Source: Verrucomicrobiota bacterium (GTDB taxonomy: Bacteria > Verrucomicrobiota > Verrucomicrobiia > Palsa-1439). Taken from it: DNA of 64,000 nucleotides. Positions within the stretch are counted from its first letter, which is position 1, and every line of letters starts with the position of its first letter. Both the position numbers and the translations under genes were made by a program. Location of the stretch: NCBI GenBank assembly GCA_037127585.1, contig JBAXYB010000005.1:603-64602 (forward strand), read 5' to 3'. Below, piece after piece: positions 14,601 through 46,755 of the stretch. The notes beneath the pieces are model-generated. The model did no database searches and had not been told where the DNA came from. It saw only the letters and a list, made by a program, of their open reading frames with translations.

Positions 14601-14744
14601 CGTCGGGAAGTGAATGTGACTTCTCGGACGGCGACAACATCGGTACCGGACTGAGTTTTCCCACAGAAGCGCCCTCTCATTCACAGTTGCCGCTTCGCCC
14701 GTGCCACTCGGTTTTCATTCCGCTTGCGCTGCTCATTGGGGTGT

Positions 14745-22511: not shown

Positions 22512-22523
22512 GGGGGACAGCTT

Positions 22524-24998
<2,475 letters not shown>

Positions 24999-30951: not shown

Positions 30952-31086
30952 TTGCTTTTGGGCGGGTAGTTTTGCATTCTGCCCGCCTCTTGAAAGCGTT
31001 TATTTTAGCGGCCGGGCTGGGGACGCGGTTGCGTTCACTCGGCTTGAACATCCCGAAGGTGATGGTCCCCATCGCCAGCAAACCGT
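30952..31086 (+). repeat. direct repeat copy A: truncated duplicate of the 5-prime end of the nucleotidyltransferase gene
   Basis: 135 bp, with about 7 mismatches by manual alignment against 32140-32274. Encodes LKAFILAAGLGTRLRSLGLNIPKVMVPIASKP and then TGA at 31086-31088. Confidence 0.9.
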
Positions 31087-31119
31087 GATCAGCATTTGCG
31101 TTTCTCGAAGGCGCGGATT

Positions 31120-31317
31120 TTACGGGCGAGGCTTGTAACCGTTTCTCCAGTAAAAAAGACGCTCGCGTTCGGCAACGTAGTCTTGGCCGAGAACGGGTCG
31201 GGTGGCGAGAAACTTGGCGAGCTTGGCTGGCTCAAGATGCTCCAACAAGATGGTCATGGCTTCGTGGACTGCAACTTGTTCGGAAAGGCTCTTGGTTTTC
31301 ACCGCTACTCCTGACAA
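31120..31317 (-). CDS. small hypothetical protein (65 aa), downstream partner of the DUF4258-like ORF
   Basis: ORF 12 nt downstream of the 85-aa ORF on the same strand. No family recognised. Confidence 0.35.
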   Translation of the reverse strand: MSGVAVKTKSLSEQVAVHEAMTILLEHLEPAKLAKFLATRPVLGQDYVAERERLFYWRNGYKPRP

Positions 31318-31329
31318 CAGGCGGGGTTG

Positions 31330-31587
31330 TTATCGGTGACCCGCGTGGGTTTTGGCGTAAGCGGGAGAGTGCGCCTCGATCTTGCGCATGGCATCGCGGT
31401 CGTAGAGCCGCTCGCCGGTGTGATGGCGATCTGGACTGGTGGAGCGGAGCGTTTTGTAAATCGCGATGGCGTTGACGATACACTCGACAACGTCGTTCTC
31501 GGTGAGACGATCCGCTGTCATTTCGGAACGCGCCTTGTCGCTGAACTCGTACCGGCCGTTCAGCACCGGCCGTTTGATTCGCACCAA
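31330..31587 (-). CDS. small protein resembling DUF4258-type toxins (85 aa)
   Basis: GRYEFSDKARSEMTADRLTENDVVECIVNA follows the DUF4258 pattern G.Y.fs.HA..eM..d.it..dVe..i, but with Asp in place of the usual His. Confidence 0.45.
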   Translation of the reverse strand: MVRIKRPVLNGRYEFSDKARSEMTADRLTENDVVECIVNAIAIYKTLRSTSPDRHHTGERLYDRDAMRKIEAHSPAYAKTHAGHR

Positions 31588-31732
31588 GATGTCCGCTTGC
31601 CTTCACGCCCGTATATACCATCGCCGGTATCGCCTCGCAACGCCTTTGCCAGCAACAACGGACGCGACGGAGCGCGTCCCTCCACACTCAGCCGTTGACT
31701 TCTCCATCCGAGTCTGGCCGAATGCCGACGCT

Positions 31733-32101
31733 ATGAATCACAGTATGAGAATTGCCCGTTTCATCTACTTCACGAACGACGTGGCTCGGATGGTCGCTTT
31801 CTACCGAGACATCCTTGGTCTGGCAATTCTCAATCCACCACGGGCCATGGATTACGACAAGTCTGATTGGGTGCAGCTCGCCAGCGATGGCATTGAGATT
31901 GGTATCCATCGCGCAGCGAAAGCGGGCAACACAGGCCTCAATCGAAACAAGCTCGTCTTCGTTGTCGATAATGTGGCAAACGCGCGGGAGCAGCTTGGCA
32001 ACCGGGGTGTTCGGATGGGCAAGCACCACGTCGCATCCGAGTTTGAGTGCTGCGACTTCAAAGACCCGGATGGGAATGTGCTTCAACTATCGAGCCGGTG
32101 A
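31733..32101 (+). CDS. VOC/glyoxalase-bleomycin resistance family protein (about 122 aa)
   Basis: IYFTNDVARMVAFYRDILGL ... CDFKDPDGNVLQL is the typical paired beta-alpha-beta-beta-beta module signature. An alternative ATG lies at 31745. Confidence 0.75.
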   Translation: MNHSMRIARFIYFTNDVARMVAFYRDILGLAILNPPRAMDYDKSDWVQLASDGIEIGIHRAAKAGNTGLNRNKLVFVVDNVANAREQLGNRGVRMGKHHVASEFECCDFKDPDGNVLQLSSR

Positions 32102-32139
32102 CCCTTAACCATCCGGTCCGAATCACGCCACGCTTGGGA

Positions 32140-32274
32140 TTGCTTTTGGGCGGGTTGTTTTGCATTCTGCCCGCCTCTTGAAAGCGTTTATTTTAGCGGC
32201 CGGGCTGGGGACGCGCTTACGGTCACTCGGCTTAAACATCCCGAAGGTGATGGTCCCCATCGCCGGCAAGCCGT
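32140..32274 (+). repeat. direct repeat copy B (5-prime end of the intact nucleotidyltransferase gene)
   Basis: Counterpart of 30952-31086, with the two copies 1188 bp apart. Confidence 0.9.
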
Positions 32275-32897
32275 TGTTGCAACATCACTTTGAGTTCTTC
32301 CGGCAACAGGGGATTACCGAGTACGTTCTGAACCTCCACCACATGCCAGAGAAGATCACGGAATTCTTCGGCGACGGCCGGCAGTTCGGGGTCAAGGTCG
32401 CGTACTCGCTCGAAATCGAAATTCTCGGCACCGCGGGCGGGGTGAAGAAGATGGAAGCCGAGTTGCGTGACGGCACGTTCCTAGTCCTCTATGGCGACAA
32501 CTTGATCCGCATCGAACTCGCGCCGCTGCTCGAGTTCCACCGGCAACGGCGGGCCATCGCAACGGTCGCCTTGTTCGAGTCGCCGGAGCCGTGGACGGGC
32601 GGGGTGGTGGAGACTGACGCGACAGGCAAGGTGACGGCGTTTCGCGAGAAGCCCGACCGGAAAACGATTTCGACAAACCTGATCAACGCTGGTATTTATC
32701 TGCTCGAACCGGCGGTGCTCGATTACATTCCGGCGGGGCAGTTTTGCGATTTCGGCAAGGACGTGTTCCCAAAATTGCTGGCGGCCGGGCAGCCGGTGTA
32801 CGCTACGAAGCCGTTGGCGTATATTCAAGACGTGGGCACGCCGGAGCGGTTGGCAAAAGCGCAGCAAGACTTTAAAAACGGTTTGGTTTTGAAATGA
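32160..32897 (+). CDS. hddC: sugar-1-phosphate nucleotidyltransferase (HddC / mannose-1-P guanylyltransferase-like)
   Basis: LKAFILAAGLGTRLR..IPKVMVPIAGKPLL and the GTAGG / YGDNL motifs of the NTP_transferase fold. TTG start at 32160 or 32178. The gene symbol is inferred from operon context only. Confidence 0.75.
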   Translation: MHSARLLKAFILAAGLGTRLRSLGLNIPKVMVPIAGKPLLQHHFEFFRQQGITEYVLNLHHMPEKITEFFGDGRQFGVKVAYSLEIEILGTAGGVKKMEAELRDGTFLVLYGDNLIRIELAPLLEFHRQRRAIATVALFESPEPWTGGVVETDATGKVTAFREKPDRKTISTNLINAGIYLLEPAVLDYIPAGQFCDFGKDVFPKLLAAGQPVYATKPLAYIQDVGTPERLAKAQQDFKNGLVLK

Positions 32898-33877
32898 TTA
32901 TCACTCAGACACCTTTGCGAATCTCGTTTGCCGGTGGCGGCACGGACTTGCCGGATTTCTACGAGCCGCACGGTGGCGCGGTCTGCAGTTCGGCCATCGA
33001 CAAGTTCGTCTACTGCATCGTCAAGGAACGCTTCGACGACAAGATTTACGTGAACTGGTCGAAGAAAGAGATCGTGGACTTGGTGGACCAGATCGAACAC
33101 GACCTCGTCCGCGAAGCGATGCGCAAAGTCGGCATCACAAAAGGCATCGAGATTTCGTTTCTCTCCGACATCCCCTCGGAAGGCTCCGGCCTCGGGTCAT
33201 CGAGCACCGTGACGGTCGGCGTCCTGCACGCGCTGTACGCATTCATCGGTGAAACCCCGACCGCAGAGCGGCTCGCCCGGGAAGCCTGCGACATTGAGAT
33301 CCGGCAACTCGGCAAACCGATTGGCGTTCAAGACCAGTACATCGCCGCGCTCGGCGGCTTGCGATACTTTCAATTCGGTCCCGGCAAGGACATCAAAGCC
33401 AATCCAGTGCCGCTAGCTCGTGGTACGCTCGAAGATCTCGACAACATCCTGATGCTTTTCTTCACCGGCAAGACGCGCAAAGCCGACGGCATTTTATCCA
33501 AGCAAAAAGCCAACGTCATCTCCAAGGCCGACACGTTGAAACTGATGGCTCTGCAAGCCAACGAAGTCCGGCAACTCCTCGAAGCCGGTGACGTGGCTGC
33601 GCTTGGCCCGTTGCTGCATCGCGGATGGGAAGCCAAACGGAAGATGACCGATGGCGCGACCAGCACGAGCGATCTCGACGAGATGTATGATCGTGCCGTA
33701 AAAGCCGGTTGCCTTGGCGGAAAGATTGCCGGCGCGGGCGGCGGCGGATTCTTCCTGTTGGTCGTCCCGAGTGACAAGCGTCAAGCCGTCCGCCACGCTC
33801 TTGCGAATCTAAAAGAAATGCCCTTCCGCCTCGAACGCGGTGGCAGCCGGGTCGCTCTAAACATGCAGAGGTATTGA
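32894..33877 (+). CDS. hddA: GHMP-family sugar kinase (D-glycero-alpha-D-manno-heptose-7-phosphate kinase type)
   Basis: N-terminus MIITQTPLRISFAGGGTDLPDFY, GHMP ATP motif PSEGSGLGSSS and C-terminal GAGGGGF. ATGA overlap with the previous gene. Confidence 0.75.
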   Translation: MIITQTPLRISFAGGGTDLPDFYEPHGGAVCSSAIDKFVYCIVKERFDDKIYVNWSKKEIVDLVDQIEHDLVREAMRKVGITKGIEISFLSDIPSEGSGLGSSSTVTVGVLHALYAFIGETPTAERLAREACDIEIRQLGKPIGVQDQYIAALGGLRYFQFGPGKDIKANPVPLARGTLEDLDNILMLFFTGKTRKADGILSKQKANVISKADTLKLMALQANEVRQLLEAGDVAALGPLLHRGWEAKRKMTDGATSTSDLDEMYDRAVKAGCLGGKIAGAGGGGFFLLVVPSDKRQAVRHALANLKEMPFRLERGGSRVALNMQRY

Positions 33878-34465
33878 ATGCAAAAACCTAGTGAATTCGC
33901 CAAGACGTACCTGACCAATTTAAAAGCCATCCTCGACCGGCTCCCACTGGAGCCGTTCGACAAGCTGACGGCGCTCATCGACGAAGCCCACGCCGCCGGT
34001 AAGCAGATCTTCGTCATTGGCAACGGCGGCAGCGCGGCGACCGCGTCGCATATGATGAACGACCTCAACAAAGGCACGCTCGGCCATAAAGGCGATGCGC
34101 CAGCGAAACGATTCAAGGTCATCGCCCTCACTGACAATGTCTCGCTCATGACTGCGTGGGCCAACGATACCGACTACAACACTGTCTTCAGCGAGCCACT
34201 GAAGAATCTCGCAAACCGCGGTGACTTGCTTATCGCCATCTCCGCCTCCGGCAATTCCCCGAACATCATTGCCGCTGTCGAAGCGGCTAAAATAATCGGC
34301 GTCAAAGTTATCGGCTTCGGTGGTTTCACCGGGGGCAAACTCGCGCAACTTGCCGACGTCTGCCTCGTTGTTCCGTCGAACGAATACGGCCCCGTCGAAG
34401 ACGTCCACATGATTCTCGACCACATCCTGACCGGCTACTTCTACGAGAAGCTCAAAGCAAAATGA
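33878..34465 (+). CDS. gmhA: SIS-domain sedoheptulose-7-phosphate isomerase
   Basis: IFVIGNGGSAATASHMMNDL and LIAISASGNSPNI motifs. Starts immediately after the previous stop. Confidence 0.85.
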   Translation: MQKPSEFAKTYLTNLKAILDRLPLEPFDKLTALIDEAHAAGKQIFVIGNGGSAATASHMMNDLNKGTLGHKGDAPAKRFKVIALTDNVSLMTAWANDTDYNTVFSEPLKNLANRGDLLIAISASGNSPNIIAAVEAAKIIGVKVIGFGGFTGGKLAQLADVCLVVPSNEYGPVEDVHMILDHILTGYFYEKLKAK

Positions 34466-35556
34466 GTAAAGGTCTCGTTCTCATTACCGGCGGCGCTGGT
34501 TTCATCGGTTCGCACACCGCGACCGAACTGTTGCGCGCCGGTTACCGGGTGCGGCTGCTCGACAATCTCACGCCGCCCATCCATACCGGCGACTGGCCGG
34601 ACTGGGTACCGGCCGAGGCCGAACAAATCATCGGCGACGTTCGCAACCGGGATGACTGGTCGCGGGCGTTGACCGGCGTCGATGCAGTCATTCATCTCGC
34701 GGCACACCAGGATTTGCTGCCGAACTTTTCCCAGTTCTTCCACGTTAACAGCGTCGGCACCGCGTTGCTCTACGAGTTGATTGTCGAGAAGAAGTTGCCG
34801 GTGAAGAAGGTGGTCGTCGCCAGTAGCCAATTCGTCTACGGCGAAGGCCGGTATCAATGCGCCAAGGACGGCGAAGTTTATCCGGTTGGCCGCGAGCCAG
34901 CGAAAGGCCAGTGGGAGCCGGTCTGCCCGAAGTGCGGGGGCGTAATTACATCGTTGCCGCTGTTAGAGACGCATGCCGGGCCGCGCAACCAATACTCCAT
35001 CGCCAAGTACTCGCAGGAGTTGATGGCCGTCTCGCTTGGCAAGAACTACGGCATCCCCAGCGTGGCGCTCCGGTACTCCATTGTCCAAGGGCCGTATCAA
35101 TCGTTCCGCAACGCTTACTCCGGTGTCCTTCGCGTGTTCACGCTGCAGATGTTGAAGGGCGAACCGGCCAGCGTTTTCGAGGATGGCCGGCAACTGCGCG
35201 ATTATGTGAACGTCGCCGACGTGGCGCGGGCGAACCGGCTCGTGTTGGAAGACGAGCGGGCCAACTACGAAGTTTTCAACGTCGGCGGCGGCCAGGGTTA
35301 CACCGTCCTGGAATTTGCCGGTATCGTTTCCGCAACTCCGCCCAATGTGACGGGTGAATACCGGGTTGGTGACACGCGCCACTCGGTGTCCGACATCACG
35401 AAACTGCAGCGCCTCGGTTGGCAGCCGACGAAGACGCCACACGACAGCGTGCGGGATTACGTCGAATGGATTCGCCGGCAAAAGCTCGACAAGGATTACG
35501 CGGCGGAAGCGTTGGCGAAGATGCGTGAGATGGGCTCGTTGCGGAAAGCGACATGA
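34462..35556 (+). CDS. NAD-dependent sugar epimerase/dehydratase (extended SDR) with a Cys-containing insert
   Basis: GGAGFIGSH Rossmann motif and a YSIAK catalytic Yxx.K. The insert RYQCAKDG...WEPVCPKCGG is not typical of GalE-like enzymes. Confidence 0.85.
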   Translation: MSKGLVLITGGAGFIGSHTATELLRAGYRVRLLDNLTPPIHTGDWPDWVPAEAEQIIGDVRNRDDWSRALTGVDAVIHLAAHQDLLPNFSQFFHVNSVGTALLYELIVEKKLPVKKVVVASSQFVYGEGRYQCAKDGEVYPVGREPAKGQWEPVCPKCGGVITSLPLLETHAGPRNQYSIAKYSQELMAVSLGKNYGIPSVALRYSIVQGPYQSFRNAYSGVLRVFTLQMLKGEPASVFEDGRQLRDYVNVADVARANRLVLEDERANYEVFNVGGGQGYTVLEFAGIVSATPPNVTGEYRVGDTRHSVSDITKLQRLGWQPTKTPHDSVRDYVEWIRRQKLDKDYAAEALAKMREMGSLRKAT

Positions 35557-36281
35557 GCGATCCGTATCTGTCGGTGGTCATACCGGCGTACAACGAAGAA
35601 GAACGCCTCAAGAAGCACGTGCCCGGCATCGTGACGTACCTCCAGTCAAAATCTTGGACGCACGAAATCATCGTGGTCAATGATGGCAGCAAGGATGGCA
35701 CGGCGAAAGCCGCGAAAACTCTGGGCGTTCAACTCATTGATTTGCAGCCGAACCGCGGTAAAGGCGGCGCCGTGAAAGCCGGTATGCTCGCGGCGCGCGG
35801 CCGGTATGTTTTGTTTGCGGACGCTGACCAGAGCACGCCCCTCAGTGAAGTGGAAAAGCTACTGGCGAAGTTGGAAGCCGGTTACGACATGGCCATCGGG
35901 TCGCGGGCGGTGGCTGGCGCCGAGGTTGAACAAGCGCAAGTCTGGTATCGCGCACTGGCCGGTAAGTTATTTGGCTTGGGGACGCGGGTGTTTTGCATTC
36001 GGGGGATCGCCGACACACAGTGTGGTTTCAAGTGCATGACCCGGGCTGTCGCGCAGAAAGTGTTTTCACAGGTTACGTCCAATACTGCAATCTTCGACAT
36101 CGAGATGCTCGTCGTGGCGACGCGGGAAGGGTACCGAATCGCGGAGGTGCCGGTGCATTGGGTGCACGATCCAGACACGCGGATTCCGTACAATCTACGA
36201 CGCGCGTTGGGGATTTGGGGCGAACTATTTCGGATCAATAAGGCCCAGCGTGTGACGTGGTCACTGAAGGCGCGCACATGA
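35553..36281 (+). CDS. GT2 glycosyltransferase, polyprenyl/dolichyl-phosphate beta-glucosyltransferase (ALG5)-like
   Basis: LSVVIPAYNEEERL, VVNDGSKDGT, ADADQSTP and QCGFKC motifs. No TM segment. Confidence 0.85.
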   Translation: MSDPYLSVVIPAYNEEERLKKHVPGIVTYLQSKSWTHEIIVVNDGSKDGTAKAAKTLGVQLIDLQPNRGKGGAVKAGMLAARGRYVLFADADQSTPLSEVEKLLAKLEAGYDMAIGSRAVAGAEVEQAQVWYRALAGKLFGLGTRVFCIRGIADTQCGFKCMTRAVAQKVFSQVTSNTAIFDIEMLVVATREGYRIAEVPVHWVHDPDTRIPYNLRRALGIWGELFRINKAQRVTWSLKART

Positions 36282-37909
36282 GCAACCGCTGGCAATGGAT
36301 TGGTCTAGCGGTGATCATTGCGGTCGGCGCATGGTTGCGGTTTTCTCACTTTGATCTCCTTGAATTTCAGGGGGACGAAGCGTACGCAGCGCATTTGGCA
36401 CTAGACGCGCTCAAGACCGGCAAGCTGCCGCTGGCTGGTTTGATGTCCAGCGTGGGCGTGACGAACCCGCCACTGTTTGCGTACCTGTTGATCCCGATGT
36501 TCGCGATCAATCCGAACCCGGCGTTTGTGTCGGCTTGCATTGCGCTGCTCGGTTTGGCGGCGGTCGTGATCACCTGGCATATCGGGCGGAAATACTACGG
36601 GCCAATGGCCGGGTTGGTGGCCGGACTCTTTTTTGCGGTGTCGCCGTGGGCGGTGATCTATTCGCGGAAGATTTGGGCGCAAGATTTTGTGCCGTTTTTC
36701 GCGACCTGCACGCTGTGGGCTGTGCATGCGCTCGTGGTCGGCAAGAAACCGAAGACCGTGTTTTGGTGTGTGTTATTGCCTTTGTGCGTCGTGCAGATTC
36801 ACTTTTCCGGTATCGCGTTGACGGCGGCGGTGGTGGCGATCATCGCGTGGTTGCGGCCGAAGATCGACTGGCGGTGGGCGGCGGGTGGTGTGGTGGCGTC
36901 GTTGGTGTTGATGGCGCCCTACTTTTACTTGCAGCAACAGACCGGCTGGGGGGATTTCAAGCAGGCGATGAACACGGTCGGCGGCGGGCAGCAGTGGGAG
37001 AAACTGAATGGCGTGACGACGCACCCGGTCAGCGGATACCGGTTGCCGAGTAAGCAGAACATTTCGTATGCGCTGGCGATCATGAACGGTGGGCGCATGG
37101 AAGACGTGCTGGGTATTGCCGGCGGGAAGGAATTCGACGCGCGCAATATTTGGGGCGCAAAACATTCTTATTTTGAGGCTGGGATTTGGGACGCGGCGTT
37201 GTTGCTACAACGACTGGCGTTTGTGGCGGCGTTGATCTGGGTTGGCTTTGAGGTGGCGAAGTTGCGCATGAAAAGCGCGCCGACGATCTTGGTGGCGTGG
37301 CTTGTGTTGCCGGTGGCTGTCTTCTTCGTCGGTGGATTATGGACGTATCTGACGTACTTCGCGATTTTGTATCCGGGCCACTTCCTCGTTTGCGGGGAAG
37401 CCGGTCGCAAACTAAAACCGATGGTTGCTGGCGCGATTGCGGTGGTGTTTGCGGTCGCGAATATTGCGTTTATGCAGGAGTATTACCGGTTTGTTGACTC
37501 AACCGGCGGCGCGCAGGGAACGTTTGGGACCGCGCTCGGACATAAGCAGGCGGCGGCCCGGTATCTGGCGGAGCAGGGCGGGGAGCGGCTACAGCACGAG
37601 AGCGCAATTCAATTGGAGTTGTCAACAGCGCGGACTCAAGCAGCACGCGAGGAACTGGGACGAAAACTTGGGCAGCCGCAGTTGCTGGAGTTGAACCATG
37701 AAGGGCGACCGGAGTTGGTGCAGTTGGAGTGGCCGTTGTTGATTACTCAAGCTAGCGCTGGTCGCGGCGCGCCCACGCTGGGAACGAACACGACGGTGAT
37801 TATGGTCGACGGGAATCGGGAGGCCTTGCAGCCGGCGCAATGGCAACAGTTGGCGCAGTATCCGAGTACGAATTTTGGGCCGATTAAACTTTTCTTCGTG
37901 AGCCGATGA
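36278..37909 (+). CDS. polytopic GT-C fold glycosyltransferase (ArnT/PMT_2-like)
   Basis: About 12 TMs, acidic first-loop motif EFQGDEAY, and a soluble C-terminal domain. ATG 36278 overlaps the previous stop (ATGA). Confidence 0.75.
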   Translation: MSNRWQWIGLAVIIAVGAWLRFSHFDLLEFQGDEAYAAHLALDALKTGKLPLAGLMSSVGVTNPPLFAYLLIPMFAINPNPAFVSACIALLGLAAVVITWHIGRKYYGPMAGLVAGLFFAVSPWAVIYSRKIWAQDFVPFFATCTLWAVHALVVGKKPKTVFWCVLLPLCVVQIHFSGIALTAAVVAIIAWLRPKIDWRWAAGGVVASLVLMAPYFYLQQQTGWGDFKQAMNTVGGGQQWEKLNGVTTHPVSGYRLPSKQNISYALAIMNGGRMEDVLGIAGGKEFDARNIWGAKHSYFEAGIWDAALLLQRLAFVAALIWVGFEVAKLRMKSAPTILVAWLVLPVAVFFVGGLWTYLTYFAILYPGHFLVCGEAGRKLKPMVAGAIAVVFAVANIAFMQEYYRFVDSTGGAQGTFGTALGHKQAAARYLAEQGGERLQHESAIQLELSTARTQAAREELGRKLGQPQLLELNHEGRPELVQLEWPLLITQASAGRGAPTLGTNTTVIMVDGNREALQPAQWQQLAQYPSTNFGPIKLFFVSR

Positions 37910-39522
37910 CGAAACACGAACGCGGAATTCTCGTGGGACTATTGGCGCTTTGGGCGGTGTTGTTTCTGCCGAACTTGCGCACGAGTCCGAATTGGTATGG
38001 CGATGAGGGCGAGTGGATGGAGAAGTGTTGGCAGCTCGCGAATGGCCACGCGCGGATCGGGCCGGTCGCTAATGACTTTGTTTATCCGTACCCGTATCCG
38101 CCGCTTTACATGTGGGCGAACGGCATGTTGCTGCGCATCTTCGGCAATGACGTTGTGGTGGGGCGCGCGTTCGGCGCGGTGACGGCGTTGGCGGCTGCGG
38201 GAGTCTTGTTTTGGATTGGGCGGCGACTGAAGGACGAATGGTTCGGCGCGCTGTGTGCGGCGGCTTTGCTCGTGTATGAAAACGCCGACGTGAACTTCCG
38301 CTGGGTCCGGTCGCATCCGTTGACCGGTACGCTGGCGCTTGCGTCGGCCGGTTTCTTGATCCGGTATCTGCAGGACAAACGAGTGCGCGATTTGGCGTTG
38401 GCCGGTTTGCTGACAGCACTGGCGACCGGGTGCAACTACTACGCGGTCGGCATGATTCCCGGTGTGATTGCGGTGGCGGTATGGGTGAACTGGCGCAACT
38501 GGCGGCACCTCGCGGTCGCGGCGTTGACGGCGGGCGCGTTTGGCTTGGTGTTTATGATGTGGTATCTGGCCACGCAGGGCGGTGTCGCGCATTTGCGGGA
38601 GCAAGTCCGACTGATGACCGGGATGGCCGACCCAACGCCGATTCGTGAAATCCTGATGCGCATCGGGAAGTTTCTTTTTGATACGCCGACCGCCATCGGG
38701 GCGAACGGCCCGACCGGTAAGGATCTGTGGTTGTGTGTGGCGGCCATTGGGCTGGTGGCTTTTCCGGTTGCACGGTTGCGCCCTTGGCTAGTGGCTTGGG
38801 CCTTCTTATTGATGTGGCCAATTTTCAAGAAGCAGGACAACGTCTCGTGGTTCTTTTACCCGGCGATGATTTTCTTGCCGCTACTGGCATTGGGAGTGGG
38901 CGGCGCGTTACTGCAGGCCGGTCGGCTCGTGGGTTGGGCGTTGAAGAAGGAAACGTTGGCCACCCGATTGGCCCCGGGGATTGTGGCGCTGGGCTTGTGG
39001 TGTCTGCCGACTCTGGGTGGCGTGTTGGGACATTTCACGACGACAATTGATGGGTTCACGCAGAGGTCGATCCCGGATGCTGAAGCAGCTTTGGCCTACG
39101 TGAATGCGCGCACGAGTGCGGAGGATTTCGTGCTCGTGCCGAAACAGATTTACTGGCTTGTGAAGAAGGCGCGCCGGAGTATGCTCTCGCACTGTGGCCC
39201 GTATGAGGGGCGACCCAATGGGGCGTGGCCGGTGCCGATTCCGCGGTCGGCGTACTGGTTCGATTGCCGGGGGGATCAGGCGAAGTACGTCGTGATCGCT
39301 TCGGGAGTGGATCAGCAAGGGCAGGGGTTCGGTATTGATTTGCTTTATACGCGCGGCGTGGCCGGCGGGCAGGAAGTGGTGGCCAAGATGGTGGCCGAAC
39401 GTTGGCCGGTCGTTTTTCCATTGAACGCGCAGGTGATTTATCCGCCGCAGTTGGGCGGGACATGGCCGGTATTGGTCGGCGGCGAGTACCTGGTGCTCGC
39501 CAATCCAAGACTGACAAAATGA
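37906..39522 (+). CDS. second polytopic GT-C fold glycosyltransferase (ArnT/PMT_2-like)
   Basis: First-loop motif NWYGDEGEW, multiple TMs and a C-terminal soluble domain. ATGA overlap at the start. Confidence 0.7.
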   Translation: MTKHERGILVGLLALWAVLFLPNLRTSPNWYGDEGEWMEKCWQLANGHARIGPVANDFVYPYPYPPLYMWANGMLLRIFGNDVVVGRAFGAVTALAAAGVLFWIGRRLKDEWFGALCAAALLVYENADVNFRWVRSHPLTGTLALASAGFLIRYLQDKRVRDLALAGLLTALATGCNYYAVGMIPGVIAVAVWVNWRNWRHLAVAALTAGAFGLVFMMWYLATQGGVAHLREQVRLMTGMADPTPIREILMRIGKFLFDTPTAIGANGPTGKDLWLCVAAIGLVAFPVARLRPWLVAWAFLLMWPIFKKQDNVSWFFYPAMIFLPLLALGVGGALLQAGRLVGWALKKETLATRLAPGIVALGLWCLPTLGGVLGHFTTTIDGFTQRSIPDAEAALAYVNARTSAEDFVLVPKQIYWLVKKARRSMLSHCGPYEGRPNGAWPVPIPRSAYWFDCRGDQAKYVVIASGVDQQGQGFGIDLLYTRGVAGGQEVVAKMVAERWPVVFPLNAQVIYPPQLGGTWPVLVGGEYLVLANPRLTK

Positions 39523-40247
39523 ACAAAGCACTACTCATCATCCCGACGTATAACGAAAAAGAAAATGTCCGCGGCATTGTCACCGCGGCGCTCGAACAGT
39601 CGCCGGCCATTGAGGTGTTGGTTGTGGATGACGGTTCGCCCGACGGTACCGGGGACATTGTTGTCGAGATGCAAACGAAGGAATCGCGTCTGCATCTGCT
39701 GCGGCGCGCCGGTAAGCAAGGGTTGGGGACGGCTTATATTGCCGGGTTCAAGTGGGGCTTGGCGCGCGACTATGCGTTCATCATGGAAATGGACGCGGAC
39801 TTTTCGCACGATCCCAAAGAGCTTCCGAATTTCTTGAAGGCGATTGAGGAGGCGGACTTGGTGTTGGGTTCGCGGTACACCGAAGGCGCGGTGCGGGTGG
39901 TGAACTGGCCGTTGTCGCGGTTGATTTTGAGCAAGGGCGCATCGTTGTATGTCCGAATCATCACGGGGATGCCGGTGATGGATCCGACCGGCGGGTTCAA
40001 ATGTTTTCGCCGGCAGGTTTTGGAAAACATCCCGCTCGATGGCATTCGCAGCAACGGATACGCTTTTCAAATCGAAATGAGTTATCAAACATGGATGCGC
40101 GGCTTTCGGATTCGGGAAATCCCCATCACCTTCACTGATCGGCTGGCCGGTAAATCGAAGATGTCGGGACGGATTGTTCGCGAAGCGTTGTGGATGGTTT
40201 GGGGGATGGCGTCGGCGCAGGGTTTCCGGCGGTGCCCGCGAAAATGA
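39519..40247 (+). CDS. polyprenol-phosphate mannose synthase (Ppm1/DPM1-like GT2)
   Basis: ALLIIPTYNEKENV, VVDDGSPDGT, MDADFSHDP, GSRY and the GGFKCFRR motifs characteristic of DPM1/Ppm1. ATG 39519 overlaps the previous stop. Confidence 0.88.
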   Translation: MNKALLIIPTYNEKENVRGIVTAALEQSPAIEVLVVDDGSPDGTGDIVVEMQTKESRLHLLRRAGKQGLGTAYIAGFKWGLARDYAFIMEMDADFSHDPKELPNFLKAIEEADLVLGSRYTEGAVRVVNWPLSRLILSKGASLYVRIITGMPVMDPTGGFKCFRRQVLENIPLDGIRSNGYAFQIEMSYQTWMRGFRIREIPITFTDRLAGKSKMSGRIVREALWMVWGMASAQGFRRCPRK

Positions 40248-43200
40248 GCGATTCGATCCAACGGTTTTACAGTCGGCGGGATTGGCTGGCGGGCGGGATT
40301 GCGTGGGCGGTGGCGTTTGCCGGCTATCTGTGGACGCTGGCGCCGAGCGTAACGCTGGAGGACTCGGGGGAGTTTTTGACGGCGGCCTACAATCTGGGCG
40401 TGCCGCATCCGCCGGGGTACCCGATCTGGACGATGCTGGCGTGGCTCTGGTGCCACCTCGTGCCGGTCGGGAATATCGGTTGGCGCGGGAATTTGATGTC
40501 GGCGTTTTTCAGCACGTTGGCGTGCGGGTTGGTTGCGTTGTTGGTGTCGAAGAGTGGGCGTGTCTTGGTGCAGAAAGTCGACTTCTTGCAGGCAGCGGTG
40601 AGTCAGCGGCTGATGGATCTCATTGTGTTGGCCAGTGCGATCTGCGCGGGGTTGTTGCTGGCGTTCAGCCCGGTCATGTGGTCGCAGGGAATCATCACGG
40701 AGGTCTACGGCTTAAACGCGTGCCTCTTCCTGGCGACGTTGGTCGTGTTGTACCGGTGGAGTTTTGAGCCGGAGAAACGCTGGCGGCTCTATCTGGCGGC
40801 GTTGATTTGGGGCGTGGGGTTGACGGCTCACCAGACGCTCGTGTTGTTGACGGTGGCGTTTCCGACATTCATCTGGTTCACCGACCGGAAGTTTGGGCGG
40901 AATGTGCTCGTGCCGGTTCTCCTCGTTGCCGCATTGGGATTGCTTGGTGAAGTCAAAGGCACTTGGACGACGCTGCACAAGTTGGAGGAAGTCCACGACC
41001 AGGCCGTCGCCACCGGCAACACGAATGTGGCGTCTCCATGGGACACCTACAAGTTTCCGTTGTTGGTCTATATCGGCTTGGTGGCTGGCGCGGGCTACTG
41101 GCTGTATCTGCTGTTGAAAGATCGCGACTGGCGCGGGCCGGCTCTGACGCTTCTGGGAGTCGTCGCGCTCGGCGGCGTCTTCGGCGGGCTGGCGCTCCGG
41201 TATCTGGAAAATGATGCGCGTGGCGTTTGGTTGCTGCTGGCCGGCATTCTAGCTATGGTCGGTTTGGCCGGCTGGATTTATGCGGGGCGGCACGGGCCGA
41301 CCGAAGATGTCCGGCATGCGTCACAGGCCTTGCTCGTCTACGTGGCGGTCTGTCTGGGTTTGTCTTTGTACGGCTATCTCTATTTCTCGTCCTGCACGAA
41401 CCCGCCGATGAACTGGGGCCATTGCAGCCAGTGGGAAGGGTTCAAACATCACTTCACGCGTGGGCAGTACGATAAAATCCATCTGGATCGGACGTTCCTC
41501 CAGTTTTGGGGGCAGCTCAACATGTTCTTTGACGACTTGCAGTGGCAATTCAACATTGTCTATGCCTTGTTGGCATTGTTCGCGTTATTCTTTTTTCGGG
41601 ACCTTGGAGATAGTGAACGGAATTGGTTGAGGTTCTTGTTTATCGGCTTTCTCTGCCTTGGGATCGGTTTCATTTTTCTGTCCAATCCGACTTTTGAAAA
41701 ACAAAAACAGTTCACCGACCGCGTCTTCTTTCTCCCGTGTCATTGTATTTATTCGTTGTGGATTGGTTATGGATTGATCTTAGGGCTGGGCTATCTCTTC
41801 ACCGAGAAACCGGCGTTGCAACGTGCGGCGGCTGCGGTGGCGGTGGTTGTGCTCGTGTTACCGGCGGGGTCGTGGTGGCGCAACTGGCGGGATCAGGAAC
41901 AACGGGGTCACGATTTCGGATACCGGTTCGGCTATCTGATGTTCAAGCCCGGCGGCGACTATCCCGAAATGGACCGCGACGCCGTCCTCTATGGCGGCAC
42001 CGATCCCGGGCGGTTTGTGCCGACGTATATGATTTTCGTCGAGAGCTTCGCCACAGCCAAGACGCACAGTGAAAAATGTCCCGACAGCGCCACGTTTGAC
42101 CGGCGTGATGTTTACATCATCACCCAGAACGCGCTCGCGGACACCACTTATATGGCTTACATCCGCGACCATTACGACTTCAGCCGGCCACGCAGTGACG
42201 CGCCCCTGACGTTGACGAACCGGTCCGGACTTTATCGCGGGTTGCTCGGCCATGCCGCGACCTATCCGAAACAACCCATTTGGATTCCCTCTGAACAAGA
42301 TTCCCAACTCGCCTTCGGCCGGTATGTCGAGGAACTCAAGACTCGCGCGCCCATGCCGGGGGAAGATGTGCGGGTCGAAAACGGTCATGTCAGTGTGCAA
42401 GGTGTGGCCGGCGTCATGGCCATCAATGGGTACCTGACGAAAGACATCTTCGAGCACAATAAAGATAACCATTCGTTCTATGTCGAAGAAAGCTACGTCA
42501 TCCAGTGGATGTATCCGTATCTGGAGCCGTTCGGCATCATTCTCAAGATCAACTCCAACCCGCTGCCGGCCATAACGCCGGCCATGGTCGCGCGTGACAC
42601 GGCTTACTGGAATGCGCTCGCCGCGGATTTATCCGGCGATCCAAAATTCCACCGGGACGATGTCGCGCAGAAAACATTTTCCAAATTGCGCTCCGCCATC
42701 GGCGGGGTCTATGCGTACCGGCATATGATTAGCGAAGCTGAAGCCGCGTTCACGCAGGCAATTGGTCTTTGCCCGGACAGTCCCGAAGCCAATTACCGGC
42801 TTGCCCAACTCTACATTGAACAGCGCCGGTTCGACGCCGCGATCTCCGTCCTCGAAAACTACCAGAAGCACGATTCTTTCAATCCCAAGATTCGCGAGGC
42901 CATTGAGCAGGTCAAAAAGATGCGCGACGATCTGGCCACGACGGCGGACTTGGAAAAACAATTGCTTGCCCAGCCCGGGAACATTCAAGTCGCCATGCAA
43001 CTGGCGCGCGCATTAGCTTCCGGTCAACGCTTGGATGCGTTTGATAATCTCGTTAACCAACTGGTGACCGCGCCCGATCTTCCGCAGGCCGATTACTTGA
43101 CGTTGATCAACTATTACGCCCAGCTCAATCGGGGCGAGCGGGTGTTGACGTTGCTCAGCGACTTTACGCGCCGGTACCCGCAGAACGCCCTCGGGTGGTA

Positions 43201-43426
43201 CAACTACAGTTGCGTCCTCAGTCTGAAAGGCAATTGCCTCGATGGAATGGCGGCGTTAAGCCGCGCGTTGCAGTTGGATGGTCCGGAACGCCAGATTCAT
43301 CTTGTGGCGAGCCAGGATAAGCGGTTCGCAAATTGTCGAAACTCGCCGCAGTTCCAACAGCTCATGGGGGGCGCTGGTACACCGGTAACGACTCCCAGTA
43401 ACCTACCGTTCCGGCTCACCCAATAG
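40244..43426 (+). CDS. DUF2723 (TMEM260-like) polytopic GT-C protein with C-terminal TPR repeats (about 1060 aa)
   Basis: N-terminal signature AGYLWTLAPSVTLEDSGEFLTAAYNLGVPHPPGYP, more than 10 TMs, a large soluble region and TPR-like repeats at the C-terminus (AEAAFTQAIGLCPDSPEANYRLAQLY...). ATG 40244 overlaps the previous stop. Confidence 0.8.
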   Translation: MSDSIQRFYSRRDWLAGGIAWAVAFAGYLWTLAPSVTLEDSGEFLTAAYNLGVPHPPGYPIWTMLAWLWCHLVPVGNIGWRGNLMSAFFSTLACGLVALLVSKSGRVLVQKVDFLQAAVSQRLMDLIVLASAICAGLLLAFSPVMWSQGIITEVYGLNACLFLATLVVLYRWSFEPEKRWRLYLAALIWGVGLTAHQTLVLLTVAFPTFIWFTDRKFGRNVLVPVLLVAALGLLGEVKGTWTTLHKLEEVHDQAVATGNTNVASPWDTYKFPLLVYIGLVAGAGYWLYLLLKDRDWRGPALTLLGVVALGGVFGGLALRYLENDARGVWLLLAGILAMVGLAGWIYAGRHGPTEDVRHASQALLVYVAVCLGLSLYGYLYFSSCTNPPMNWGHCSQWEGFKHHFTRGQYDKIHLDRTFLQFWGQLNMFFDDLQWQFNIVYALLALFALFFFRDLGDSERNWLRFLFIGFLCLGIGFIFLSNPTFEKQKQFTDRVFFLPCHCIYSLWIGYGLILGLGYLFTEKPALQRAAAAVAVVVLVLPAGSWWRNWRDQEQRGHDFGYRFGYLMFKPGGDYPEMDRDAVLYGGTDPGRFVPTYMIFVESFATAKTHSEKCPDSATFDRRDVYIITQNALADTTYMAYIRDHYDFSRPRSDAPLTLTNRSGLYRGLLGHAATYPKQPIWIPSEQDSQLAFGRYVEELKTRAPMPGEDVRVENGHVSVQGVAGVMAINGYLTKDIFEHNKDNHSFYVEESYVIQWMYPYLEPFGIILKINSNPLPAITPAMVARDTAYWNALAADLSGDPKFHRDDVAQKTFSKLRSAIGGVYAYRHMISEAEAAFTQAIGLCPDSPEANYRLAQLYIEQRRFDAAISVLENYQKHDSFNPKIREAIEQVKKMRDDLATTADLEKQLLAQPGNIQVAMQLARALASGQRLDAFDNLVNQLVTAPDLPQADYLTLINYYAQLNRGERVLTLLSDFTRRYPQNALGWYNYSCVLSLKGNCLDGMAALSRALQLDGPERQIHLVASQDKRFANCRNSPQFQQLMGGAGTPVTTPSNLPFRLTQ

Positions 43427-43431
43427 GCCGG

Positions 43432-43944
43432 TCAGTTGCCGAGCGGTAACACCAGTTTCACGCCGACGAATTGCCGGCCGACCGTCTGCAAATTGATATC
43501 CGACTGGAACCGCGTCGCGTTGAGTGTGTCGAGGAGGATGTTGCCGCTGTTAAGTCGGCTCGATTTCGGTGTCGTGGGGGCAGACGAGAAATCGCGCACA
43601 CCGTAGTCGAAGCGGAGTTGATCCTCGACGTTCTTCACAAACTCTTGCAACACGAACGTGGTCTGATCGAGTTGGTATTTTGCGGCTTGGAGCGAGCCTT
43701 TGACCGGCGCAGCATCCTTATCCGTGATCCCGAAGTCGGCTTCGAACTTCACCCACCGGTCACCGGTTGACCCGGTCTGCCGGCGAGTTGCACTGGTTTG
43801 AGTGGTTGAAACAGTCGTGACGGTATTGCTTTTACCTGCGGGGGCGTTGAGCAGTGAAAGTGGCACTTGGTCGACAATCAGCTCGGCCAACGAGTTAATC
43901 GTGAACCCGAGGAAAAAGGCCAGTAATCGAAGCGCGCTTTTCAT
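43432..43944 (-). CDS. hypothetical secreted protein (170 aa)
   Basis: Signal peptide MKSALRLLAFFLGFTINSLA. No family recognised. Convergent with the glycosylation operon. Confidence 0.5.
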   Translation of the reverse strand: MKSALRLLAFFLGFTINSLAELIVDQVPLSLLNAPAGKSNTVTTVSTTQTSATRRQTGSTGDRWVKFEADFGITDKDAAPVKGSLQAAKYQLDQTTFVLQEFVKNVEDQLRFDYGVRDFSSAPTTPKSSRLNSGNILLDTLNATRFQSDINLQTVGRQFVGVKLVLPLGN

Positions 43945-44041
43945 CGCTGCCTAAAGGTAATCGATCCGGTCCGACTGTAAAGCCTCGGAAATAGTTGAGG
44001 CAAGCGGGAAAGCTGGCCCACGCAGTGCTTAGTAAAGAGCC

Positions 44042-44293
44042 ATGCGGCACAGCAAAGACAATCGAACCGGTGAACGCGCCAGCAGCCTCCAGGCGCTGAA
44101 ACTAGCCGTCGTCGATGGTACCGCGTGGCGCTATGACCAATTGGTCGCCCTCGCGACGGCCGCCGGTGCGAGTGACGAAGAGATTGATGACGTGGCTTCG
44201 ACCGCCATCCACACCTTGCTGACCGGTGCGGAACAGCCCTTGACCGCGCGAGAGTTGGCCCACGATTGGACGGGCGGACATTTCCGCGCCTGA
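44042..44293 (+). CDS. hypothetical small protein (83 aa)
   Basis: ORF only. Sequence composition is plausible, but no family is recognised. Confidence 0.3.
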   Translation: MRHSKDNRTGERASSLQALKLAVVDGTAWRYDQLVALATAAGASDEEIDDVASTAIHTLLTGAEQPLTARELAHDWTGGHFRA

Positions 44294-44358
44294 CGCCGTG
44301 CTTTTTTGTACGAGTGGGGCTTGATTTCCCCGGGGGGCGCGTGGTAGCGTCCCGCCCC

Positions 44359-45441
44359 ATGAATAAAACTCTTTGCCTTCTTCTGACCGGCCTGGTGGCC
44401 GCTTCCACGTACGCCCAAGACAAATCGGCCCCAGCCCCGGCGCCCATGCACAAGCCGGAGGACGTCGTCGCGCGGGTGGGCGACATCACCATTCAATGGA
44501 AGGAAGTGGACACGGCGGTTCGCGCCTTCACCCGCCAATTCACCGCCTCCGGGCGCGAGTTCCCGGCGGAGCAGCTGCCCCAATTGCAGTACAGCATCGT
44601 GAACGACATGGTCAGCCACGAACTCGTGGTGCAAGCCAGCAAGGGCAATGAACCCAAGGACCTCGATGCCCAAGTCAAGAAGCAGATCGAGCAGGCCAAA
44701 ACTCAGCTCGGCGGCGATGAAAATTTCACCAAAGCTCTTGAAGAGATGGGCATGACCCGCGGCGATTACGAGAAGCGCCTCCGGGAAGGTCTCGTCGCGC
44801 AGGCGGCCATCAAGCAACTCGTGGACGCCAAGGTCATAATTAGCGGCGACGAGTCCAAGAAATTCTACGACGAGAACCGCAGCAAATTCGTCACTCCCGA
44901 ACGGGTTCGCGCCAGCCATATCCTGATTCTGTTGTCGCCGGACGCCACCGATGAAGTCAAAACCCAAAAACTAACGCAGATCAAAGCGGCTCAGTCCATC
45001 GTCAAAGGCGGCGACAAGTTCGAAGATGTTGCCCGCAAGTTCTCGGAAGATCCCGGCAGCGCCGCGCAAGGTGGCGACCTCGGTTACTTCACCCGCGACC
45101 GGATGGTTAAGGAATTTGCCGACGTGGCGTTTGCGCTGAAGACGAACGAAGTCAGCGACATTGTCACAACCCAATTCGGCTACCACATCATCAAGAGCAC
45201 TGGCCACAATGCGGCCGGCGAACGCGCCTACAGTGAAGCCAAGGAAGACATTGAAAAGTACCTGAAAAACCAAAAGGCTCAGGACGTTGTTCAAGAATAT
45301 GTCGAAGGGTTGCGCGCCAAAGCCAAGATCGAGATCTTGCTGCCGAAGCCCGAAGCCACCGCCATCCCGCCCCGAGCGGTCCCAGCTTCCAAACCAATGC
45401 CGACTGTCGAAACCAAGCCGGTGGCCGCGCCGAAGCCCTGA
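44359..45441 (+). CDS. periplasmic parvulin-type peptidyl-prolyl isomerase (SurA/PrsA-like)
   Basis: Signal peptide MNKTLCLLLTGLVAASTYA, and a PpiC rotamase domain (RASHILI ... GGDLGYFTRDRMVKEFADVAF ... TQFGYHIIK). Confidence 0.85.
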   Translation: MNKTLCLLLTGLVAASTYAQDKSAPAPAPMHKPEDVVARVGDITIQWKEVDTAVRAFTRQFTASGREFPAEQLPQLQYSIVNDMVSHELVVQASKGNEPKDLDAQVKKQIEQAKTQLGGDENFTKALEEMGMTRGDYEKRLREGLVAQAAIKQLVDAKVIISGDESKKFYDENRSKFVTPERVRASHILILLSPDATDEVKTQKLTQIKAAQSIVKGGDKFEDVARKFSEDPGSAAQGGDLGYFTRDRMVKEFADVAFALKTNEVSDIVTTQFGYHIIKSTGHNAAGERAYSEAKEDIEKYLKNQKAQDVVQEYVEGLRAKAKIEILLPKPEATAIPPRAVPASKPMPTVETKPVAAPKP

Positions 45442-45499
45442 CCGGCGGCGTTTGCGGGTTTGACGCTCACGCGCCGACTCCGTAGAGTTGCCGGCCAGC

Positions 45500-46753: not shown

Positions 46754-46755
46754 GT

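Follow-up and report, generated by a model that had tools for sequence, protein, structure and literature searches.

A conserved verrucomicrobial operon predicted to join a heptose-type nucleotide-sugar pathway to polyprenyl-phosphate-sugar synthases and GT-C-type transferases, including a TMEM260-like protein

Introduction

Bacterial three-component glycosylation systems (GtrA/GtrB/Gtr(type), ArnC/ArnE-F/ArnT, CsbB/GtcA/YfhO, and the pentofuranose systems) use a cytoplasm-facing family 2 glycosyltransferase (GT2) that loads a monosaccharide onto polyprenyl phosphate and a polytopic GT-C enzyme with an acidic first periplasmic loop that uses this donor outside the cytoplasm, the GT-C partner being the variable, fast-evolving part (PMC11127046, PMC8035078). 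Here, we describe nine genes, g1 to g9, at positions 32160-43426 of a 64-kb stretch of Verrucomicrobiia DNA (GenBank assembly GCA_037127585.1, contig JBAXYB010000005.1, positions 603 to 64,602), referred to as the window. By the same division of labor, the GT2 enzymes g5 and g8 are predicted to load the carrier lipid, and the polytopic g6, g7, and g9 to use the donor on the far side of the membrane. The block very probably encodes a periplasmic glycosylation system of the polyprenyl-phosphate-sugar/GT-C type. Its genes are as follows.

g1, 32160..32897, plus strand: short sugar-1-phosphate nucleotidyltransferase, 245 aa (Pfam NTP_transferase, 2e-44)
g2, 32894..33877, plus strand: GHMP anomeric sugar kinase of the HddA/WcbL group (Pfam GHMP_kinases_N/C; NCBIfam HddA)
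g3, 33878..34465, plus strand: GmhA-like SIS-domain isomerase paralog (Pfam SIS_2/SIS; TIGR00441)
g4, 34462..35556, plus strand: GalE-type extended short-chain dehydrogenase/reductase (SDR) with a three-cysteine (Cys3) insert (Pfam Epimerase, 2e-42, in two stretches)
g5, 35553..36281, plus strand: GT2 without transmembrane (TM) segments, predicted polyprenyl-phosphate-sugar synthase (Pfam Glycos_transf_2, 8e-27)
g6, 36278..37909, plus strand: polytopic, putative GT-C-type transferase (Pfam PMT_2, 23.5 bits, below the 26.1 cutoff)
g7, 37906..39522, plus strand: glycosyltransferase of predicted GT-C(A) fold with a C-terminal periplasmic alpha/beta domain (Pfam PMT_2, 35.4 bits)
g8, 39519..40247, plus strand: TM-less DPM1/Ppm1-type GT2, predicted polyprenyl-phosphate-mannose synthase (Glycos_transf_2, 3e-31)
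g9, 40244..43426, plus strand: TMEM260-like GT-C-TPR protein, predicted protein O-glycosyl(mannosyl)transferase (PF11028, 1e-31, plus TPR)

The block differs from the three-component systems in that no flippase gene lies in or near it, two synthases stand together with three GT-C enzymes, a predicted nucleotide-heptose pathway complete but for one enzyme lies upstream along with the Cys3-insert epimerase, and no acceptor glycan locus is adjacent. Furthermore, GtrB, ArnC, and the Pyrococcus dolichyl-phosphate-mannose synthase (PfDPMS) have 1 to 4 C-terminal TM helices, whereas g5 and g8 have none predicted.

Also close are the actinobacterial Ppm1/Pmt systems (PMC5882110, PMC11727336) and eukaryotic DPM1 with PMT, TMTC, or TMEM260. 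Here, g8 is the DPMS/Ppm1-like partner, and g9 combines a TMEM260-family GT-C region, including equivalents of the human residues D52 and H67, with TPRs. The g6 and g7 proteins recall PMT by an Asp-Glu pair in loop 1 and by weak PMT_2 matches, but they are not of family GT39, match no solved PMT by sequence, and lack an MIR domain. Unlike the hosts of the Ppm1/Pmt systems, the host here is a diderm verrucomicrobium. Compared with human TMEM260, g9 is long (1060 aa), has a much larger TM region, and carries a middle domain without detectable similarity to the human Rossmann-like domain. The paper reporting the discovery of TMEM260 goes no further than to note "distant homologs in bacteria" (PMC10214176), and the literature searched yielded neither a characterized bacterial TMEM260/DUF2723 homolog nor a characterized counterpart of verrucomicrobial O-mannosylation.

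The adjacent g1, g2, and g3 resemble the three enzyme families of GDP-heptose loci (HddC, HddA, and GmhA), with the HddC-type guanine Glu motif and the GmhA signature motifs kept. As in the Campylobacter jejuni capsular polysaccharide locus, gmhB is not part of the cluster. Tailoring in C. jejuni relies on GMD-like dehydratases, cupin epimerases, and reductases, whereas this block has the GalE-like g4 with its Cys3 insert, and the consumer is apparently a polyprenyl-phosphate-sugar synthase instead of a Leloir heptosyltransferase.

The Rhizobium LpsL/RgtE/RgtA-D and Francisella FlmF/FlmK systems for lipid A and core run from an NDP-sugar 4-epimerase through a GT2 polyprenyl-phosphate-sugar synthase to several ArnT-like GT-C enzymes. 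The block resembles them in this logic and differs in having no lipopolysaccharide (LPS) genes nearby and in its TMEM260-like/TPR enzyme. The polyprenyl-phosphate-sugar/GT-C logic is known, and the block varies it by combining two synthases with three GT-C enzymes, a heptose-type pathway, and a bacterial TMEM260-family enzyme in one operon. The original prediction, a reading of the window from its letters alone, knew of no characterized system with such a combination, and we found none in the literature searched, nor a characterized LPS-core or O-antigen locus that the block matches.

Results

Nine coupled genes in one block

The nine open, in-frame plus-strand reading frames are joined by seven ATGA start/stop overlaps (32894, 34462, 35553, 36278, 37906, 39519, and 40244) and, between g2 and g3, by direct abutment of TGA and ATG (33877/33878). 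This arrangement had been described in the original prediction, and all of its coordinates are reproduced exactly; each of its domain calls for g1 to g9 is likewise recovered by Pfam and NCBIfam profile searches. The start of g1 is ambiguous by 6 codons, TTG at 32160 or TTG at 32178. GC content is even over the whole window.

A conserved unit made of two modules

A one-genome-per-species scan with the g7 profile returned 35 loci, all in Verrucomicrobiota metagenome-assembled genomes (MAGs), and further metagenome contigs were added. To assess synteny, the nine protein sequences were searched against these loci (numbered with the prefix L) by tblastn, and counts were limited to loci whose contig covers the position. 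The order of g1 to g8 is the same in essentially every covered locus, about 30 at the species level in Verrucomicrobiia. Among assessable loci, g1 is present in 29/29, g2 in 28/29, g3 in 29/31, g4 in 32/32, g5, g6, and g8 each in 33/33, and g9 in 16/26. Such conservation of order exceeds chance, and the block is a real conserved unit. Its upstream neighbors vary: L040 and L042 have Ham1p-like and cytochrome b genes there, L038 has PriA, and the window has a GH4 gene. It follows that the block moves as one unit. The nearest homologs (73-94% identity) are confined to MAGs of uncultured Verrucomicrobiia/Verrucomicrobiota and to metagenomes of soil, peat, and freshwater. Compared with the window, the cytoplasmic enzymes are much better conserved (median identity 72-79%) than the membrane transferases, for which the median is 47% in g6 (range 31-69%) and 50% each in g7 and g9. 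The ATGA coupling is confined to the sub-clade and nearest relatives of the window, with gaps of 7-50 nt in more distant relatives.

A closer look at the variant loci shows that the operon consists of two modules, A (g1 to g5 plus g6) and B (g7 and g8 plus an optional g9). In L038 and L039, g1 to g5 (74-78% identity) precede just one polytopic protein, an unrelated one of 653 aa whose first loop reads WQGDEDYH, and a methyltransferase comes after it; g7, g8, and g9 are not present. Hence, g1 to g5 plus one GT-C form a self-sufficient module. Conversely, the distant locus L043 (the sole taxon label in its cluster is Terrimicrobiaceae) has a g7 relative of 27% identity, a GT2 with 44% identity to g8 but only 30% to g5, and, directly downstream of this GT2, a TMEM260_N plus TPR protein, which indicates that g8 followed by g9 is a second, independent module. 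Locus L027 lacks g9, and the slot after g8 holds two PMT_2 plus TPR proteins of 633 and 557 aa (12902-14803 and 16516-18189) and an extra GT2. This PMT_2 plus TPR layout is that of the eukaryotic TMTC protein O-mannosyltransferases (PMC10214176).

Four relatives (L028, L035, L041, and L042) carry genes for S-adenosylmethionine (SAM)-dependent methyltransferases between g5 and g6, which suggests O-methylation of the carried, tailored sugar. The SAM-dependent methyltransferases in relatives, mostly in the g5/g6 gap, are as follows.

L028: 7656-8282
L035: 7682-8281
L041: 12794-13342 and 14153-15088
L042: 13586-14410
L038: 15669-16496

A pair resembling the g2 kinase and the g3 SIS protein (73-74% identity) is also found in another sugar locus, L037 (GCA_013388795.1, on a contig labeled Chloroflexi). 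This locus holds genes for a NusG-like protein, a GFO/IDH/MocA fusion with a left-handed beta-helix (LbH) domain (WbpB/D-like), an RmlD-like SDR, and a DegT aminotransferase, with no GT2 or GT-C. Sequences this similar in different phyla point to horizontal transfer or to an error in binning.

Predicted nucleotide-sugar enzymes

The PDB matches of g1 include GMPPs and Yersinia pseudotuberculosis HddC (5xhw). Its sequence E85-x-E-x-L-G-T-A-G resembles the HddC motif ExEPLGTGGA, E85 is invariant in 30 orthologs, and there is no LbH domain. In Y. pseudotuberculosis HddC, the Glu of this motif reads the guanine, and uridylyltransferases have Gln at that position (PMC6981941). By its motif, g1 is probably GTP using and is a candidate heptose-1-phosphate (or mannose-1-phosphate) guanylyltransferase.

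The top three PDB matches of g2 are all heptokinases (3k85, 2e-46; Burkholderia pseudomallei WcbL 4usk, 7e-40; and C. jejuni 4n3o, 3e-37), with fucokinase, the next family, about 20 orders weaker at 1e-19. Homologs of g2 have 72-94% identity over >120 clusters. The top 12 PDB matches of g3 are all phosphoheptose isomerases. In GmhA, Glu65 and His180 (Escherichia coli numbering) are the catalytic pair, and SxSGNS binds phosphate. At 34% identity to E. coli GmhA, g3 keeps GNGGS, ND, SxSGNS (as SASGNS), H61, and H180, and these signature residues, as well as two substituted ones considered in the Discussion, are invariant in 32 orthologs.

An acidic pair marks the 4,6-dehydratases such as RmlB and GMD. 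In g4, S121-S-Q and Y178xxxK182 are invariant and the dehydratase Asp/Glu is absent, so that of the two activities originally proposed for g4, epimerase or dehydratase, its motifs indicate an epimerase-type SDR and not a dehydratase. The best PDB matches are 4-epimerases of UDP-hexose, UDP-HexNAc, and UDP-GlcA, together with CDP-tyvelose 2-epimerase. About 35 residues are inserted after 'YGEG' (residues 131-166, window 34852-34959), with C133 and C155-P-K-C158 invariant in 33 orthologs. The insert interrupts the Pfam match and most PDB alignments, and only the tyvelose epimerase aligns across it, loosely; the insert may be a metal-binding loop.

The original prediction saw neither gmhB nor a flippase gene in the cluster, and neither is found across the 64 kb, where tblastn with E. 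coli GmhB returns no gmhB. In one related lineage only, a GmhB-like HAD gene (36-39% identity to E. coli GmhB) lies just past g9 in convergent orientation (L003, 15445-15972, minus strand; L040, 20592-20981, minus strand). In C. jejuni, too, the capsule locus has no gmhB, and Cj1152 of the LPS locus is used instead (PMC10680097).

Predicted polyprenyl-phosphate-sugar synthases

The two GT2 proteins share 32% identity, and each has an invariant Asp-Ala-Asp motif (D90-A-D92 in g5 and D92-A-D94 in g8). For g5, the NCBIfam matches are Dol-P-hexose (dolichyl-phosphate-hexose) transferase, AglJ, PpgS, and ArnC, and the PDB matches to DPMS, ArnC, and GtrB are all at about 1e-15. This equidistance does not bear out the original ALG5-like label, and the sugar of g5 is therefore not readable from homology. 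We predict g5 to be a polyprenyl-phosphate-sugar synthase that consumes the product of g1 to g4; it comes directly after g4 in 33/33 loci, the minimal L038 among them. In g8, the best PDB match is Pyrococcus DPMS (5mlz, 1e-33) versus 6e-11 for the next, ArnC, and no NCBIfam equivalog cutoff is reached; g8 is predicted to be a polyprenyl-phosphate-mannose synthase. No Pfam family of GtrA-, SMR-, MATE-, or Wzx-like flippases is found in the window, and none of GtrA, SMR-type ArnE/F, or MATE occurs among the called genes of the related loci.

Predicted GT-C-type transferases g6 and g7

With a PMT_2 score of 35.4 bits, g7 is just above the 26.1-bit cutoff, and g6 is below it (23.5 bits). The loop motifs GDEAY (g6) and GDEGEW (g7) of the original prediction are both present, with D33 and E34 invariant in 15-20 orthologs. 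In both proteins, this Asp-Glu pair directly follows TM1; E29, D33, and E34 are invariant in the first loop of g6, as is Y31-G-D-E-G-E-W-M38 in g7. Because the N-termini of g6 and g7 are positively charged, we infer that the loop is periplasmic.

Structure prediction for the GT-C enzymes was successful for one of this pair. The AlphaFold2 (AF2) model of g7 is confident (pLDDT 82, pTM 0.84), and Foldseek aligns it with STT3, AglB, PglB, ArnT, and AftA (E 2e-7 to 3e-5, TM scores 0.45-0.50), so that the modeled g7 has a GT-C(A) fold but no closely matching family. Few proteins belong to the g7 family: of 1.84 billion representative proteins, 39 reach E<=1e-30 and 237 reach E<=1e-10. The AF2 model of g6, built with database homologs, is poor, and because its pLDDT is 59, the best Foldseek match, ArnT (5ezm/5f15, TM scores 0.34-0.39), is weak. 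Taken together, the PMT_2 score below cutoff, the low-confidence model, and the ArnT match argue weakly for g6 as a GT-C-fold transferase.

The g6 and g7 family profiles find nothing relevant among PDB sequences at E<=1, and therefore neither protein fits a solved GT-C family by sequence. Membership in PMT (GT39) or ArnT (GT83) was rejected on this basis, together with the absence of an MIR domain in either protein and the generic GT-C(A) character of the g7 structural match. The two were also considered as recent paralogs, which is ruled out, as there is no detectable pairwise similarity.

Over the three GT-C genes (window 36000-42000), GC skew is strongly positive at +0.17 to +0.21 and AT skew is -0.13 to -0.25; the genes for soluble enzymes show almost no skew. 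Membrane-protein codon composition is the probable cause.

The TMEM260-like protein g9

In g9, a region of about 12 or more TM segments is followed by a middle domain in the periplasm and, at the C-terminus (residues ~800-1040), by a TPR array. It was originally described as a DUF2723-TPR protein, and both parts are matched; PF11028, formerly DUF2723, is now "TMEM260-like protein O-mannosyltransferase" and matches at 110 bits, the cutoff being 24. In phmmer, g9 matches human TMEM260 (PDB 9rql) at 5e-16. The segment SVTLEDSGEFLTAAYNLGVPHPPGYP aligns with the human protein such that 'DSGE' corresponds to D52 and 'HPPGYP' to H67, and the Asp of 'LEDSGE' follows TM1. In human TMEM260, D52 and H67, residues of the sugar-recognition motif, bind the Dol-P-Man (dolichyl-phosphate-mannose) donor and are essential for activity (bioRxiv 10.64898/2026.03.17.711096).

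The middle domain of g9 comprises 255 residues with several invariant Asp/Glu. Its profile matches nothing in the PDB, the TMEM260 Rossmann-like domain included, and because of this the equivalent of D441, the catalytic base that the human Rossmann-like domain carries, was not located. The Asp of 'GGTDPGRF' was considered as its counterpart and dropped, as this residue is not invariant. By association with the DPMS-like GT2 just upstream, here and in L043, g9 is predicted to transfer mannose from polyprenyl-phosphate-mannose to protein Ser/Thr. The TPR array and the PMT_2-TPR replacements in L027 point to protein acceptors.

Flanking DNA

The flanks of the block carry housekeeping genes (McsA/McsB/ClpC, IspF, CysS, a GH4 hydrolase, a SurA-like peptidyl-prolyl isomerase, CNNM/CorC transporters, an H+-translocating pyrophosphatase, and trigger factor). 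The 5' end of g1 is duplicated, with the following features.

30952-31086 (left) and 32140-32274 (right), plus strand: direct repeat, 135 nt, 95% identity, 1188 nt spacing (repeat search)
31120-31317 and 31330-31587, minus strand: small open reading frames (ORFs) of 65 and 85 aa between the repeat copies, no Pfam match
~31733-32101: VOC/glyoxalase-fold gene between the repeat copies

The repeat duplicates about 20 nt upstream of g1, with the ribosome-binding region, and the first 38 codons of g1; g1 residues 1-38 match 30972-31085 at 97% identity by tblastn, and a stop closes the left copy. No related locus contains the 1.05 kb (31087-32139) that separates the two copies. This stretch looks like an insertion with target duplication into the 5' end of g1, which would have moved the native divergent promoter region 1.2 kb from the operon. 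The 'glyoxalase' ORF at 31466-32101 was rejected as an operon member, being outside the conserved block, and GH4 'matches' beside g1 in other loci are an artifact of the duplicated g1 5' end read antisense.

Past g9 lies one further gene, convergent with the block.

d1, 43432..43944, minus strand: secreted protein, 170 aa, carrying a signal peptide and a stretch rich in Thr/Ser, NTVTTVSTTQTSATRRQTGSTGD (sequence and hydropathy; no Pfam match)

Homologs of d1 (tblastn, 28-50% identity) occupy this position after the operon in at least nine related loci (L001, L002, L011, L014, L021, L026, L030, L031, and L035), with or without g9; a place of d1 in the system, or a role as acceptor, is speculative. 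The ORF d2 (43941-44492, minus strand) is treated as spurious, being Arg-rich, without a Pfam match, and conserved in the closest relative only.

McsA, McsB, and ClpC form an arginine-phosphorylation protein quality-control cassette best known from Firmicutes. In the window, a McsA-like protein (UVR motif), a McsB-like protein (ATP:guanido phosphotransferase), and a ClpC-type AAA+ protein are encoded at 20911-24998. Two adjacent CNNM/CorC-type (CBS-domain) transporter genes, 45488-46753 and 46579-47739, overlap by about 170 nt as ORFs; hence, the second gene probably starts further downstream.

Discussion

Lipid-carrier-based periplasmic glycosylation, the original reading of the locus, is best supported by profile searches, PDB comparisons, the g7 GT-C model, and, above all, neighborhood conservation. 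The composite picture, a conserved two-module periplasmic glycosylation system using polyprenyl-phosphate-sugar donors, stands in our judgment a shade above even.

In module A, g3 would isomerize sedoheptulose-7-phosphate to the 7-phosphate of D-glycero-D-manno-heptose, g2 would phosphorylate O1 to give alpha-heptose-1,7-bisphosphate, and a GmhB-type phosphatase encoded elsewhere would take off the 7-phosphate. The resulting heptose-1-phosphate would be turned into GDP-heptose by g1 and epimerized by g4. As a peripheral GT2, g5 would then move the sugar, which may also be methylated in some relatives, onto polyprenyl phosphate; a flippase would bring the lipid-linked donor across the membrane, where the fast-evolving GT-C g6 may pass the sugar to an envelope acceptor. 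The divergence of g6 resembles that of serotype-specific Gtr enzymes (PMC11127046). In module B, g8 would make polyprenyl-phosphate-mannose from GDP-mannose for use in the periplasm by the GT-C g7. Where present, g9 would share that donor and most likely O-glycosylate Ser/Thr of secreted or envelope proteins recruited by its TPRs. We consider a protein acceptor for g9 to be evenly balanced, and heptose as the lipid-linked donor to fall slightly short of that. In the fullest form of this picture, module A would make a polyprenyl-phosphate-(epi/methyl)heptose with which GT-C enzymes would heptosylate periplasmic proteins or envelope glycans, in parallel with TPR-guided, TMEM260-type protein O-mannosylation in a diderm; this form is tentative and, on the whole, doubtful.

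A number of observations weigh against this picture. In contrast to the GDP-heptose enzymes, g1, g2, and g3 all score below their equivalog thresholds: 107 bits against a cutoff of 300 for HddC in g1, 159 bits (2e-46) against 600 for HddA in g2, and 114 bits (6e-33) against 209 for gmhA (TIGR00441) in g3. The best NCBIfam model for g1, also below its cutoff, is the mycobacterial Rv3264c-type (ManB-type) mannose-1-phosphate guanylyltransferase (185 bits versus 107 for HddC), and its best PDB match is annotated as a UTP-glucose-1-phosphate uridylyltransferase (1e-49). In g3, Asp replaces the catalytic E65 and Glu replaces Q172 (E. coli GmhA numbering), and the closest matches of g4 are UDP-sugar epimerases. 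Loci L014 and L031 lack g2 and g3, with g1 directly followed by g4 and with g4 to g9 kept. Neither gmhB nor a flippase gene is found in the window, and no polyprenyl-phosphate-heptose is described in the literature searched. To these are added the poor g6 model, the middle domain of g9 without a PDB match, and the fact that no acceptor has been identified. Promoter and terminator scans gave counts at or below shuffle expectation and are uninformative for this organism; co-transcription of the nine genes is presumed.

Several of these points would fit a system with hexose-only lipid donors, in which g1 is a mannose-1-phosphate or glucose-1-phosphate nucleotidyltransferase, g4 acts on hexoses as a 4- or 2-epimerase and supplies g5 (to give, for example, polyprenyl-phosphate-Gal, -Glc, or -GalNAc), and g2 and g3 are accessory or form a separate heptose branch off the lipid carrier. 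The preferences of g1, the resemblance of g4 to UDP-Glc, UDP-GlcNAc, and UDP-GlcA 4-epimerases, and the two loci without g2 and g3 in which the remainder is intact all favor it, as does the fact that known GT2 polyprenyl-phosphate-sugar synthases all use hexose- or pentose-type sugars (PMC11127046). However, in 28/29 covered loci g1 and g4 enclose g2 and g3, which show translational coupling in the window, the g1-to-g5 set stays together despite the GT-C swap in L038, g1 is short and LbH-less with an ExE-LGT-G motif as in HddC, and mannose is already served by a separate DPMS-like synthase, g8. Hexose-only donors therefore seem to us rather unlikely. Still less probable, indeed improbable, is that the two halves are merely co-located, with g1 to g4 making a GDP-heptose derivative for Leloir glycosyltransferases of the cytoplasm that are encoded at other sites (and act on LPS, capsule, or an S-layer glycan) and g5 to g9 forming an unrelated polyprenyl-phosphate-hexose system that is co-transcribed by chance. 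Characterized GDP-heptose pathways do feed cytoplasmic glycosyltransferases (PMC10680097), and the L037 pair shows g2 and g3 homologs in a conventional polysaccharide-type locus. Yet g5 follows g4 in every assessable locus, overlapping it by ATGA in the window, the block has no Leloir heptosyltransferase (GT9-like) or other GT-A/GT-B gene and remains intact while its flanks change, and the minimal L038 is exactly g1 to g5 plus one GT-C.

A further question concerns the acceptors. All three GT-C enzymes might modify glycolipids or glycans (lipid A, LPS core, O-antigen, capsule, or peptidoglycan) in the manner of ArnT, Rgt, Flm, or Gtr, with the TPRs of g9 serving assembly or partner binding. 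The diderm host, the classical role of heptose as an LPS-core sugar, the label 'Ara4N transferase-like' given to homologs by JGI, and the presence of ArnT among the best structural matches of g7 and as the best for g6 are in keeping with this, as is the fast evolution of g6, like that of serotype-specific Gtr GT-Cs (PMC11127046). On the other hand, the ArnT structural matches are no better than those to oligosaccharyltransferase or PMT (TM scores ~0.45-0.5), and there are no lipid A or LPS genes in the neighborhood. Moreover, the only characterized member of the g9 family is a protein O-mannosyltransferase, with which g9 has in common the layout of GT-C, luminal domain, and TPR, as well as the donor-site residues (PMC10214176), and the alternatives in the g9 slot are PMT_2 plus TPR proteins of TMTC architecture. 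We thus regard glycan acceptors for all three enzymes as unlikely, and retain the two-module system, with a possible protein acceptor for g9, as our preferred reading.

The operon is conserved in a widespread verrucomicrobial lineage of soil, peat, and freshwater, in which the variable GT-C slot suggests a diversifying surface decoration. The lipid-linked monosaccharide donors known so far are Glc, Gal, GlcNAc, GalN(Ac), Man, Ara4N, GalA, and pentofuranoses, and to our knowledge, the characterized heptosyltransferases are all cytoplasmic Leloir enzymes. If heptose is indeed carried, polyprenyl-phosphate-heptose would add an as yet undescribed class to this donor repertoire, and the incorporation of heptose on the periplasmic side would become possible. 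The position of g9 directly behind its presumptive donor synthase g8 provides a direct functional hypothesis for bacterial TMEM260 proteins, and the system is testable by heterologous expression without culturing the host. If this hypothesis holds true, a bacterial TMEM260-type enzyme would be both a prokaryotic counterpart and a tractable model of the human enzyme of SHDRA syndrome.

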